Shown here: positions 22,384 to 51,655 of the stretch, piece by piece
Numbering within the stretch: the stretch's first letter is position 1
Layout of the letters: each line of letters begins with the position of its first letter
Assembly (NCBI GenBank): GCA_951406725.2
Contig: OX597827.1
Location: forward strand, 26,288,001 to 26,352,000
From: Octopus vulgaris
Taxonomy: Eukaryota
DNA length: 64,000 nt
Direction: 5' to 3'
Made by a program: the position numbers and the translations under genes
The notes under the pieces: generated by a model
What the model saw: the letters and a program-made list of their open reading frames with translations, nothing else
The model's database searches: none
What the model was told of the DNA's origin: nothing

Positions 22384-22423
<40 letters not shown>

Positions 22424-22606
22424 ATAAAGGGTTTAGTAAAATAAATTACTTTGCCACATACTGAACTCATTAGAAATAGCAGCCAAAAAAAATTTTTTTA
22501 GCCATTTCTAATACTTAAAGAAAATTTCTCTCAGATAGTGTTTACTCAAAATAGCCCACGAAGGTATGGGGGTAAAAACATTAAAAAATCACAAGTGCAA
22601 AGATTA

Positions 22607-22668
22607 TTTGAGAACGTACGTTTCTAGATCAGCCAAATACAATTCGACATTTCTTTCGTCAGCTCAAA
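22607..22668 (-). ncRNA. Type I HHR, R1 copy 1
   Basis: Minus strand: tttgag CTGACGA a aga..gtcgaat tgt atttggc..tct a GAAA cgtacg TT ctcaaa. Confidence 0.8.
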
Positions 22669-23162
22669 ATTCCTTAATTCGGATTTGTAAACACTGAAAG
22701 TAGGAGCATACCCTTTTGACGACTTTTCACCTCCGAAGATCCGTTCAAACTAACAGTGCCAACAAATTCAAAATATGCAAGCGAAGAATTTCTGCTCTCC
22801 CCTTTCCACCCACGTGGGCTAACCTAGCAAACACCATAATTTTATCGGTGAAAACCGAAGCATTATAATGAATTATAATTTCAACAATTGAGGGTAAAAT
22901 TAATTAATTATTAATCAATTTCACCAAGTATTCAGTATGTAAAGGGACCATTTTAGGCGAATTCAAAATATTACATTTTATAAAGGGTTTAGTAAAATAA
23001 ATTACTTTGCCACATACTGAACTCATTAGAAATAGCAGCCAAAAAAAATTTTTTTAGCCATTTCTAATACTTAAAGAAAATTTCTCTCAGATAGTGTTTA
23101 CTCAAAATAGCCCATGAAGGGGTGGGGGTAAAAACATTAAAAAATCACAAGTGCAAAGATTA

Positions 23163-23224
23163 TTTGAGAACGTACGTTTCTAGATCAGCCAAATGCAATT
23201 CGACATTTCTTTCGTCAGCTCAAA
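23163..23224 (-). ncRNA. Type I HHR, R1 copy 2
   Basis: Same motif, 556 bp from copy 1. Confidence 0.8.
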
Positions 23225-23595
23225 ATTCCTTAATTCGGATTTGTAAACACTGAAAGTAGGAGCATACCCTTTTGGCGACTTTTCACCTCCGAAGATCCGT
23301 TCAAACTGATCATTTACATACTGAATACTTGGTGAAATTGATTAATAATTAATTAATTTTACCCTCAATTGTTGAAATTATAATTCATTTCTCTCTGTTT
23401 AATGCTTCGGTTTTCACCGATAAAATTATGGTGTTTGCTAGGTTAGCCCACGTGGGTGGAAAGGGAGAGCAGAAATTCTTCGCTTGCATATTTTGAATTT
23501 GTTGGCACTGTTAGTTTGAACGGATCTTCGGAGGTGAAAAGTCGCCAAAAGTGTATGCTCCTACTTTCAGTGTTTACAAATCCGAATTAAGGAAT

Positions 23596-23657
23596 TTTGA
23601 GCTGACGAAAGAAATGTCGAATTGTATTTGGCTGATCTAGAAACGTACGTTCTCAAA
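23596..23657 (+). ncRNA. Type I HHR, R1 copy 3
   Basis: tttgag CTGACGA aagaaatgtcgaattgtatttggctgatcta GAAA cgtacg TT ctcaaa. Confidence 0.82.
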
Positions 23658-24122
23658 TAATCTTTGCACTTGTGATTTTTTAATGTTTTTACCCCCATAC
23701 CTTCGTGGGCTATTTTGAGTAAACACTATCTGAGAGAAATTTTCTTTAAGTATTAGAAATGGCTAAAAAAATTTTTTTGGCTGCTATTTCTAATGAGTTC
23801 AGTATGTGGCAAAGTAATTTATTTTACTAAACCCTTTATAAAATGTAATATTTTGAATTCGCCTAAAATGGTCCCTTTACATACTGAATACTTGGAAATT
23901 GAAATTATAATTCATTTCTCTCTGTTTAATGCTTCGGTTTTCACCGATAAAATTATGGTGTTTGCTAGGTTAGCCCACGTGGGTGGAAAGGGAGAGCAGA
24001 AATTCTTCGCTTGCATATTTTGAATTTGTTGGCACTGTTAGTTTGAACGGATCTTCGGAGGTGAATAGTCGCCAAAAGGGTATGCTCCTACTTTCAGTGT
24101 TTACAAATCCGAATTAAGGAAT

Positions 24123-24184
24123 TTTGAGCTGACGAAAGAAATGTCGAATTGTATTTGGCTGATCTAGAAACGTACGTTCTCAAA
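24123..24184 (+). ncRNA. Type I HHR, R1 copy 4
   Basis: Identical motif 527 bp downstream of copy 3. Confidence 0.82.
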
Positions 24185-24569
24185 TAATCTTTGCACTTGT
24201 GATTTTTTAATGTTTTTACCCCCATACCTTCGTGGGCTATTTTGAGTAAACACTATCTGAGAGAAATTTTCTTTAAGTATTAGAAATGGCTAAAAAAATT
24301 TTTTTGGCTGCTATTTCTAATGAGTTCAGTATGTGGCAAAGTAATTTATTTTACTAAACCCTTTATAAAATGTAATATTTTGAATTCGCCTAAAATGGTC
24401 CCTTTACATACTGAATACTTGGTGAAATTGATTAATAATTAATTAATTTTACCCTCAATTGTTGAAATATATATATATATATATATACATACAGATACAT
24501 ATATATATATATATATATGTATCATATATATATATATATATATTCATATGTATATACATACTGTATGCG

Positions 24570-48044: not shown

Positions 48045-48096
48045 TAAACCGTGTTTATATTTTATATGCAGGTGTGTGTGCGCATGTATATATATA

Positions 48097-48480
48097 GGAG
48101 TGGCTGTGTGGCAAGTAGCTTGCTCACCAAACACATGGTTCCGGGTTCAGTCCCACTGCGTGGCACCTTGCCTTGTGAGTGGATTTTGTAGACGGAAACT
48201 GAAAGAAGCCGGTCGTATATATGTATATATATATATATATATATGTATATACATATATGCATGTATGTGTGTGTGTGTATGTTTGTGTCTGTGTTTGTCC
48301 CCCATCATCGATTGACAACCGATGCTGGTGTGTTTAGGTCCCCGTAACTTAGCGGTTCGGCAAAACTGACCCATAGAATAAGTACTTGGCTTACAAAGAA
48401 TAAGTCCTGGGGTCGATTTGCTCGACTAAAGGCGGTGCTCCAGCATGGCTACAGTCAAATGATTGAAACAAATAAAATAG
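48097..48480 (+). mobile_element. SINE family B
   Basis: ggagtggctgtgtggcaagtagcttgc..ggttcagtcccactgcgtggcacc..ggcggtgctccagcatgg. Confidence 0.85.
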
Positions 48481-48566
48481 TATATATATATGTATATATA
48501 TATACATATAGTCAATAATACTCGGTAAAATTAATTAATATATATAATATAATTATATTAGTATAA

Positions 48567-48604
<38 letters not shown>

Positions 48605-48611
<7 letters not shown>

Positions 48612-49130
48612 AATAATACTTTGTAAAATTAATTAATAATTAAATAGTTTTACCCTTTTATTATTGACAATATAACTCTCTCTCCCTGAAATTTTAACTA
48701 CAGTTCTCTCTGTAGAAATGTATCACTCTGTAACCCACGTGGGAAGAAGAGGACGAATGCGAGGCCTCACTTGTATTTTTGAATTCGTTGGTACTGGGGG
48801 TCTAATATGGTTTCTCTGGGATTACTCGTACCAGACGGGTATGTTTGATTTTTAGTACTTTCAAATCCAAATCTGAGAAATCCTTGAGCTGACGAAGGAA
48901 ATGTTGATCTTTATAATCAACTAATCCAGAAACGGGCCTGTTCTCAGTTAATCTTATATAGGTTTTATCTTTCGTTATTTTTCCCTCTATACCTGTGTGG
49001 GTTATTTTTGAGCATGCATTGTCTGGGAGATTTTTCTTACAGTAGAAGAAATAGCTAAAATTTTTGGCTGCTATTTCTAAAAAGTTCGGTGTCTGGTAAA
49101 TAAATAATTTTACTGAACCCTATTTATAAT
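48605..49130 (+). mobile_element. Retrozyme-like unit R2 (diverged homolog of R1), about one monomer
   Basis: Colinear with R1: ttttaccct, cccacgtggg, ttttgaatt.gttgg.actg, gggtatg, HHR, tattttt.gag, ggctgctatttctaa, ttttact.aaccct. Confidence 0.8.
48885..48946 (+). ncRNA. Type I HHR, R2
   Basis: tgag CTGACGA a gga aat gttgat ctttata atcaac taa tcc a GAAA cgggcctg TT ctca. Confidence 0.8.
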
Positions 49131-49439
49131 ATATATATAATAAGAGTAAATAATTTTTTCGATGGTTTTTCAGACAACCAACAATTATTTACCGGTAGAT
49201 TTCGGTATGTAAATATGACCTTTAGCGGCGGGAACTTCTGTGGAGTTCAGTATATATAGTATATAAGTAAAAGGGCAGGCAACAGGTTGCTTTGCCGCAT
49301 ACCGAAAGAATTAGAAATAGCAGTCAGAGACTGTTTATTTCCGTTTTCTACAAGTGGGGGCTCCATATACGACATAACCCTGCAATTCACATATGCAAAA
49401 TAGGAGGAGTAAATAAACGAAAACAATGCCTTACCGTTA

Positions 49440-49500
49440 ATGGCGAACATGTTTCTAGATCGGAAGCGAGAAATTGCCTCATGTCTTTCTTCAGCACCAT
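49440..49500 (-). ncRNA. Type I HHR, R3 copy 1
   Basis: Minus strand: atggtg CTGAAGA a aga...tct a GAAA catg TT cgccat. Confidence 0.8.
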
Positions 49501-49812
49501 CTTCGTTAGATTTATCAAATGCCACCAGCCTCCACTTTTGACCAGGCGTCATCAAATAGTGGGGGAAAAGTGAGCATAGGCTAAAGCTATGTAGACGATT
49601 GAATCCGTAAATTTTCCCTCCAAAATTCTGCCACGCGCACTACCGGGATAGTCGTAAGGGAGTGAAAAATCCAATTAGTAATTAGTAATAAGGGTAAATA
49701 ATTTACGAATTCAATCGTCTACATAGCTTTAGCCTATGCTCATTTTCCCCCCACTATTTGATGACGCCTGGTCAAAAGTGGAGGCTGGTGGCATTTGATA
49801 AATCTAACGAAG

Positions 49813-49873
49813 ATGGTGCTGAAGAAAGACATGAGGCAATTTCTCGCTTCCGATCTAGAAACATGTTCGCCAT
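49813..49873 (+). ncRNA. Type I HHR, R3 copy 2
   Basis: atggtg CTGAAGA aagacatgaggcaatttctcgcttccgatcta GAAA catg TT cgccat. Confidence 0.8.
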
Positions 49874-50120
49874 TAACGGTAAGGCATTGTTTTCGTTTAT
49901 TTACTCCTCCTATTTTGCATATGTGAATTGCAGGGTTATGTCGTATATGGAGCCCCCACTTGTAGAAAACGGAAATAAACAGTCTCTGACTGCTATTTCT
50001 AATTCTTTCGGTATGCGGCAAAGCAACCTGTTGCCTGCCCTTTTACTTATATATATATATGCATATATAAGAAAATGGAGGAATAAATAGCTAGAAGTGG
50101 GTCTTTGGTGCTAAAAAGCC

Positions 50121-50707
50121 ATTATTTAATTAGTTATCGTCTCTATATACATCAAACTACGGTTTACCTTTAAATTACCTGCCCTCGTATACCTTATAAC
50201 CAGGACCACACTTACTGAGTTAATTACCAGGAGTGCCTCTGGATGCATTTATTCCTTAGATGGTTTAAACACCTCTAACTTATAGGTTATATGTCTGTAT
50301 ATATATGAATGTACAGGTATGTGTCTGGGTGTGATCTTGTGTGTGAATAATATCAGTAAATTACAGAAGTTTGATAGTGGAATTGAAAAGAGATGACCAC
50401 CACTTCATCACATTAGCCTTGCCGACAGAAATGCAGTGAAACAGGGAATAAAGTGCTGTAAATGGATTTGGGCTGACACCAATAATATTTCCACGTAATC
50501 AAGTTTTAAGTGTTAAAATAAATACATATGCTTATACTTATAGATGCAGGTGTGGCTGTGTGGTAAGAAGCTTGCTTCCCAACCACAACATGGTTCTCGG
50601 TTCAGTCTCACTGCGTGGTATCTTGCGATAGTGTCTGCTACTATATCCTCGGGGCGAACAAAGCCTTGTGAGTGATTATGGTAGACAGAAACTGAAAGAA
50701 ATCTGTC

Positions 50708-50763
<56 letters not shown>

Positions 50764-51655
50764 GTGTGTGTATGTGTGTGTTTGTGTGTATGTGTGTTTG
50801 TGCGTGTTTGTGTGTGTGTGTGTGTGTATACATATATCTATGTGTGTGAGTGTCGTTGTGTCTGTGTTTGTCTGCCCGTCACCGCTTGACAACCGGAGTT
50901 GGTGTGTTTACGTACCCGCAAATTAAAAACGTGACCGATAGAATAAGTACCAGGCTTTATAAAAAAGAATTTAGTGCCGGGGGTGAATTCATTCGACTAA
51001 AATCCCTGAAGTTGCTCCAGCATGGTCGCAGTCAAATGACTGCAACAAGCAAAAGAATAAAAGAATATATTATTTAATTAGTTATCGTCTCTATATACAT
51101 CAAACTACGGTTTACCTTTAAATTACCTGCCCTCGTATACCTTATAACCAGGACCACACTTACTGAGTTAATTACCAGGAGTGCCTCTGGATGCATTTAT
51201 CCCTTAGATGGTTTAAACACCTCTAACTTATAGGTTATATGTCTGTATATATATGATTGTACAGGTATGTGTCTGGGTGTGATCTTGTGTGTGAATAATA
51301 TCAGTAAATTACAGAAGTTTGATAGTGGAATTGAAAAGAGATGACCACCACTTCATCACATTAGCCTTGCCGACAGAAATGCAGTGAAACAGGGAATAAA
51401 GTGCTGTAAATGGATTTGGGCTGACACCAATAATATTTCCACGTAATCAAGTTTTAAGTGTTAAAATAAATACATATGCTTATACTTATAGATGCAGGTG
51501 TGGCTGTGTGGTAAGAAGCTTGCTTCCCAACCACAACATGGTTCTCGGTTCAGTCTCACTGCGTGGTACCTTGCGATAGTGTCTGCTACTATATCCTCGG
51601 GGCGAACAAAGCCTTGTGAGTGATTATGGTAGACAGAAACTGAAAGAAATCTGTC

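Follow-up and report, generated by a model that had tools for sequence, protein, structure and literature searches.

Two hammerhead-bearing units, R2 and R3, lie next to each other in a 64,000-nucleotide stretch of Octopus vulgaris DNA (hereafter the window). The question they raise is whether they are diverged sisters whose RNA fold was maintained by selection, as the original prediction held, and how two such units came to occupy a single site.

Anatomy of the R2 and R3 insertions

The features of the locus are given below, together with R1, which lies elsewhere in the window. Sites 1 and 2 are the two fixed 3' ends of the family, described in a later section.

22410..24470, no strand: R1, four hammerhead units, two per strand, in back-to-back arrangement, of the same family as R2 and R3
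48509..48540, plus: short copy of the R2 left junction in the TA tract, 98 bp upstream of the original
48571..48608, no strand: (TA)n tract flanking R2 on the left
48609-49130: whole R2 insertion
48609..48618, minus: inverted stub of 10 nt, identical to the site-2 end of locus L002 once reverse-complemented
48617..49130, plus: R2 main arm, about 514 nt of the roughly 566-nt monomer, terminating at site 1
48884..48947, plus: predicted type I hammerhead of R2, with the core from 48889, A.A at 48896/48928 and stem III at 48933-48940
after 48942, plus: predicted cut of the R2 hammerhead
49045..49130, plus: first part of the R2 3' domain (hairpin H1, shared 3' block, GG..CC hairpin H3, site 1)
49129..49138, no strand: TA spacer of about 10 nt between the tail-to-tail R2 and R3
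49138-50053: whole R3 insertion
49138..49704, minus: R3 long arm, 567 nt (one 548-nt monomer plus a 19-nt wrap), terminating at site 2
49138..49259, minus: R3 tail from site 1 to site 2, about 122 nt, in the long arm only, carrying the 3' strand of H2 and hairpin H5
49439..49501, minus: R3 hammerhead on the minus arm, core from 49494, predicted cut after 49446, mirroring the plus arm
49700..50053, plus: R3 short inverted arm, 354 nt, terminating at site 1
49812..49874, plus: R3 hammerhead on the plus arm, core from 49819, stem III CAUG, predicted cut after 49867
50048..50069, no strand: TA tract flanking R3 on the right

R2 and R3 share one TA-rich site, as predicted, with TA tracts on the outside and about 10 nt of TA between them. 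R3 had been described as one unit that wraps onto its own start after 548 bp, matching the period of R1. The wrap is real (49138-49156 and 49686-49704 are identical at 18 of 19 positions), but the match to R1 is only rough, and R3 is actually a minus-strand main unit with a 354-nt inverted plus arm. The two arms differ at 3 of 354 sites (99% identical), compared to 13 differences from the nearest other locus. They surround an 86-nt spacer, have TA on both flanks, carry identical hammerhead cores (49819 on the plus and 49494 on the minus strand) and join at a 5-nt microhomology (49700-49704). From its sequence, the 10-nt inverted stub is likely a minimal second arm of R2.

The partner element was absent from all of the other 29 R2 loci and 28 R3 loci examined. 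A single composite R2-R3 element was therefore rejected; R2 and R3 are two separate, independent insertions. Since no other examined locus has both and both target (TA)n, their adjacency needs no special link. R3 probably inserted later than R2, because its arms are 99% alike whereas R2 is 95-96% identical to its nearest copies. The two window copies are probably not sources of new copies, because each has one ribozyme per strand and because any read-through RNA would bury the ribozymes of R3 in a duplex of 354 bp. A run of two or more ribozyme units at one locus, the rule by which a repeat is called 'active' in the accessible text of Li et al. (bioRxiv 10.64898/2026.07.22.740005), is absent here and occurs at other loci of the family (e.g. 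L083, L129-L132 and L157-L158). The locus consists of two decaying copies, and any target-site duplication at the copies would be masked by the (TA)n target.

Copies of a SINE-like dispersed repeat, which has several matches in the window, lie at about 48090-48480 and 50545-51060. The TA tract that holds R2 begins where the first of these copies ends, and around the second, several hundred bases are directly duplicated almost without change at a distance of 948 bp (from 50121 and from 51069 onward).

Scanning the window for hammerheads placed the R1 cores at 22662(-), 23218(-), 23602(+) and 24129(+). The periods of R1 within the window are 527 and 556, which at regions 23850-23900 and 22900-22960 fall below the 563-nt monomer; in tandem loci elsewhere the R1 monomer is 563-565 nt. 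Further hammerhead-like motifs with a long stem II occur at 323(-), 10347(+), 17061(+) and 40146(-), three of them with a palindromic 6-nt stem III, and likely belong to other retrozyme or PLE families. Rfam at the gathering score gave no match within the window.

Family relationships and the hammerhead fold

In the 2.8-Gb genome, the hammerhead core-plus-stem-II pattern had 1,025 matches compared to 1 for the reversed control, a relaxed hammerhead pattern 3,967 compared to 39, and a pattern for the shared 3' block 4,778 compared to 0. A first look gave 1,700-2,900 candidates for each of R1, R2 and R3. Tandem loci across the family had periods of 545-566 nt, and the monomers closed from them were about 563-566 nt for R1, R2 and sisters and 548 nt for R3. 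Tandem copies continue from the 3' end directly back into the same unit.

The three units had been described as colinear, with R2 and R3 as sisters. Colinearity is strong for R1 and R2, which align over about 540 nt at 69% identity. Homology outside the hammerhead core, the absence of which the original prediction had named as evidence against itself, was present both between R1 and R2 (z=26, 200 shuffles) and between R3 and these two (z=5.5-6.8 overall). The R3 signal, however, was concentrated in the 3' block (z of 7-9) and weak in the 5' segment (-0.1 to 2.4), and R3, although related, is a distant clade and not a close sister of R2. The commonest sister subfamily in the listed sample (L156-L176, L188-L206) has U.U under stem II, a shortened inner stem and arrays of as many as 11 units.

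No terminal repeats of fixed length were found among the compared loci, and R2 has no frame of 60 aa. A conserved small protein in R3 (a 101-aa frame) was rejected, as 8 of 28 copies were frameshifted; shared variants in this frame numbered 32/17/21 by codon position. Among locus-private variants, 32 were common to all units of a locus and 218 were present in one unit. An RNA-editing footprint was likewise rejected, since the locus-shared variants showed no excess of A>G (4/32) over T>C (6/32). Family-like pieces were present in the assembled contigs of four presumed RNA runs; such contigs are uninformative on strand, ends and circles.

R1, R2 and R3 have the features of a type I hammerhead: a conserved core, three helices, an NUH triplet and an open helix I. 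The stems listed in the original prediction were found as written, namely stem I as uuugag/cucaaa, ugag/cuca and auggug/cgccau in R1, R2 and R3, the stem II base as aga/ucu, gga/ucc and aga/ucu, and the inner stem as gucgaau/auuuggc in R1 and guugau/aucaac in R2. An inner stem is present in R3 as well (GAGGC/GCUUC). Stem III is self-complementary in all three units (cguacg, cgggccug and caug) and in 13 of the 14 types found at two or more loci of the family. The A.A that closes stem II at the core (positions 10.1/11.1) and the GUU triplet had both been called constant, which is true of R1-R3, where the canonical pair at 10.1/11.1 is absent, but not of the family. Tallied by hand among 100 listed relaxed-pattern matches, 10.1/11.1 was U.U in 41, A.A in 26, A-U in 16, G.U in 11, G-C in 2 and another state in 4. 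With at least five states, both an invariant A.A and a switch between A.A and U.U only were rejected. The triplet was GUU in 104 of 120 copies, GUC in 8, GUA in 5 and AUU in 3.

Covariation was assessed on 120 motifs kept from 262 candidates, one per locus and subfamily, of which three were dropped (indel or unalignable stem II) to leave 117 rows and 44 columns. The test was a custom R-scape-like procedure, not R-scape, with a null in which substitutions are reshuffled along a tree built from the 3' flank only. The search pattern fixed the letters of the core and stem II base, and the inner-stem register was picked from the same sequences. The best five of 946 column pairs all fell within the 21 proposed pairs; a single one, in the inner stem II, was individually significant (E=0.007), with E of 0.6-1.7 for the other four. 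The compensatory change that had been predicted is real at the subfamily level. Pairing was preserved by 40 of 44 helix changes on internal branches (16 of them double changes) but by only 31 of 65 on terminal branches (Fisher p=2e-6). This supports selection on the ribozyme fold in lineages that kept spreading, with decay following insertion, since terminal-branch changes break pairs about half the time. The view of an old, diversified family with a maintained hammerhead fold stands, with selection acting on those lineages and not on the inserted copies R2 and R3.

The inner pairs of stem III change together, and since such pairs cannot form in a hairpin they fit a dimeric ribozyme of the kind described for animal repeats in the accessible text of PMC4209133. 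Folded on their own, the ribozymes score no better than shuffles (z about 0), and the ribozyme fold was part of the circular minimum-energy structure in only 1 of 3 monomers.

Insertion ends and the 3' structured domain

The twin-arm anatomy of the insertions and a structured domain at their 3' end are features beyond the original reading. Copies end in TA at two fixed 3' sites, immediately 3' of hairpin H3 (site 1) and of hairpin H5 (site 2). These lie about 200 and 297 nt past the core in R1 and R2 and 185 and 313 nt past it in R3. The tail from site 1 to site 2 is about 97 nt in R1 and R2 and 122-125 nt in R3, outside the 30-40 bp of the PLE tail.

Among 128 locus clusters, ends were called on both strands in 40 and on one arm in 70, and 18 gave no call. 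In 37 of the 40 two-arm loci there was one arm per site (p=3e-9 for 37 of 39); the other three comprised one locus with site 1 twice, one with site 2 twice and one wrongly merged cluster. One-arm loci were split evenly, with 34 at one site, 34 at the other and 2 elsewhere. R3 obeys the one-of-each rule (site 2 on the minus arm, site 1 on the plus arm), and R2 does so if its 10-nt inverted stub counts as an arm. Each locus has its own arm lengths and inversion point, and the 5' ends are variable. Only 3 of 153 5' ends, from loci that are mostly best matches to long queries, lay within 5 nt of the ribozyme cut, compared to 3.0 expected, so that there is no pile-up at this position. The predicted cut site was crossed by 118 of 153 arms, and 61 of 153 were longer than one monomer. 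Because 5' ends are not enriched at the cut and arms cross it, the template was not a cleaved linear monomer; a circle or an uncleaved multimer would fit.

The insertions show 5' truncation, partial tandems, an inverted 5' copy, a tail at one end and a microsatellite target. In the accessible text of PMC8557442, 5' truncation, one-sided tails, 5' inversions and microsatellite bias are given as PLE traits, and in that of PMC11167929 the PLE tail spans the stretch between two RT start sites in vitro. By analogy, two fixed ends with one per arm are likely a Penelope-type footprint.

The last 190-230 nt at the 3' end fold alike in R1, R2, R3 and sisters, in the order of hairpin H1, a 10-bp long helix H2 that encloses the GG..CC hairpin H3, and the GG..CC hairpin H5. 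The second plus-strand unit of R1 is without the H5 hairpin. In 10 hand-picked subfamily rows, 94% of cells were paired and double changes were present in 10 of 44 pairs. None of 500 shuffles reached this score and slid partners were 35-43% paired, although the structure was derived from the same 10 rows and shuffles leave relatedness in place. A tree-based test on 52 rows was weak (pair-keeping of 23/34 compared to 26/60, p=0.03), and in it H3 and H5 were out of register for the R3-type rows. Circular folding of whole monomers scored better than 25 shuffles (z=-3.3 to -5.3). As modeled, the domain is a candidate structural start signal common to two deep clades; the PLE ends examined contain no matching sequence.

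Possible routes of insertion

We consider it quite probable that R2 and R3 are protein-less hammerhead retrozymes, which the RT and endonuclease of an autonomous PLE likely inserted into a single TA tract. The retrozyme unit has no RT or GIY-YIG frame. RT frames occur in at least four young PLE families of the genome, two of which have a Pfam match to GIY-YIG; young PLEs with both frames are abundant and likewise end in TA. In the best candidates of the searches, none of four PLE families compared had an end sequence in common with the monomer. At the ends of PLE families, one had no canonical hammerhead, one had a short standard hammerhead and one a variant with U.U under stem II. The first is a young and abundant PLE of 4.1 kb whose two long frames overlap and which has a 37-nt tail (L153:3600-7730, L154, L155). 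The third, also young (L240:1061-1130, L241, L242), has a 775-aa frame and a second frame upstream, and the hammerhead is in its pLTR and has the variant core CCGAAGA.

In a tandem transcript, two ribozymes would pair through the palindromic stem III and self-cleave as a dimer, and the monomer would be ligated into a circle, where a lone ribozyme would be weak. The PLE protein would bind the 3' structured domain and cut both DNA strands in (TA)n. Synthesis of cDNA would start just 3' of each of the two GG..CC hairpins, one start per strand, and read through the ribozyme site, and the two cDNAs would be joined by microhomology. Inserted copies would then decay, and the compensatory changes would be a record of selection on source RNAs that kept spreading. 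Two reports count against a role for cleavage in this scheme: in the accessible text of Li et al. (bioRxiv 10.64898/2026.07.22.740005), 8 of 9 predicted Xenopus retrozyme dimers showed no cleavage in vitro, and in that of PMC11167929 the PAc ribozyme was dispensable for insertion in vitro. Only tentatively do we propose the specific form in which two GG..CC hairpins of a covarying 3' RNA domain set the starts of a Penelope dimer, one circle is copied from both cut strands, and a partner-needing ribozyme cuts multimers only.

The circle step is all that separates this proposal from one with the same family and PLE machinery in which the template is an uncleaved linear tandem transcript and the ribozyme serves another step or is a passenger; this, too, is possible, though we would not favor it outright. 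Uncleaved multimers account for the lack of 5' ends at the cut site no less than circles do, unprocessed RNA is the main PAc insertion substrate in the accessible text of PMC11167929, and the abundant 4.1-kb PLE manages without a canonical hammerhead in its ends. On the other hand, ribozyme stems are under selection in spreading lineages, and 32 private variants in all units of a locus are expected from repeated copying of one monomer, although a uniform source array would be equivalent.

It is improbable that R1-R3 are pLTRs left by 5'-truncated autonomous PLEs and not a self-standing element. Their insertion anatomy is the same as that of PLEs, one PLE family has a hammerhead with the same stem II mismatch and a palindromic stem III, and PLE fragments adjoin six family loci. 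However, the neighbors inspected (L005, L014 and L032) have their own ends and are set off by TA tracts, the four PLE families have no homology to the monomer, and tandem copies run from the 3' end straight into the same unit, with 61 of 153 arms exceeding one monomer. A MITE or foldback DNA transposon with 354-bp inverted repeats, its ribozyme likeness and covariation incidental or due to ancestry only, would suit the 99% inverted arms, the 86-nt spacer and the TA flanks of R3, and shuffle controls do leave relatedness in place, but this reading can hardly be sustained, being already refuted by arm lengths and inversion points that vary at every locus, with arms ending at different sites and half of classified loci one-armed, while the tree-based null and the internal/terminal contrast account for ancestry.

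On testable features the R2/R3 family is one of animal non-LTR retrozymes, with cleavage and circles as predictions from sequence. As described in the accessible text of Cervera and de la Pena 2020 (PMC7229834) and of Li, Clavereau and Pollet 2026 (bioRxiv 10.64898/2026.07.22.740005), these are AT-rich tandem units without coding capacity, each with a single type I hammerhead and a short palindromic stem III, that co-occur with PLEs, and the latter argues that they are non-autonomous PLE derivatives. The mismatch at the stem II base has a reported precedent in HHR_Amex2 of axolotl (U.U). Units of 548-566 nt exceed the 150-450 bp given in the former account and are within the 51-972 bp of the latter. 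The octopus family differs in its dispersed short twin-arm insertions, compared to long arrays, and in that no pLTR relative was found among four PLE families, whereas 21 of 57 Xenopus families match PLEs in the latter account. Neither two fixed start sites, a 3' structured domain nor a cephalopod appears in the accessible text of either. A search of accessible literature text found no published cephalopod hammerhead repeat, and 'ribozyme' is absent from the main text of an octopus repeat annotation (PMC13282606).

PLEs with a C-terminal GIY-YIG (Craig et al. 2021, PMC8557442; Frangieh et al. 2024, PMC11167929) are alike, as far as their accessible text goes, in 5' truncation, partial tandems, an inverted 5' copy, a tail at one end and AT/microsatellite targets, and the PLE hammerhead has a long helix II and palindromic helix III (Cervera and de la Pena 2014, PMC4209133). 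In contrast, the octopus unit has no RT/endonuclease frame, its tail is about 97-125 nt compared to the 30-40 bp reported for PLEs, and its start sites lie 3' of GG..CC hairpins and not in an AC-rich loop (PMC11167929).

The kind of element is already known; the additions here are a quantitative test for selection on the fold and, in two deep clades, a candidate structural start signal. PLE mobilization of animal retrozymes has so far been argued from co-occurrence and pLTR likeness. The family supplies a physical footprint, two start sites with one per arm, and a candidate RNA signal that could be mutated in the existing in vitro PLE assay. Its natural subfamilies form a ribozyme variant series (A.A, U.U, A-U, G.U and G-C under stem II, with stem III palindromes of 4-8 nt) that would serve for testing dimer-gated cleavage.
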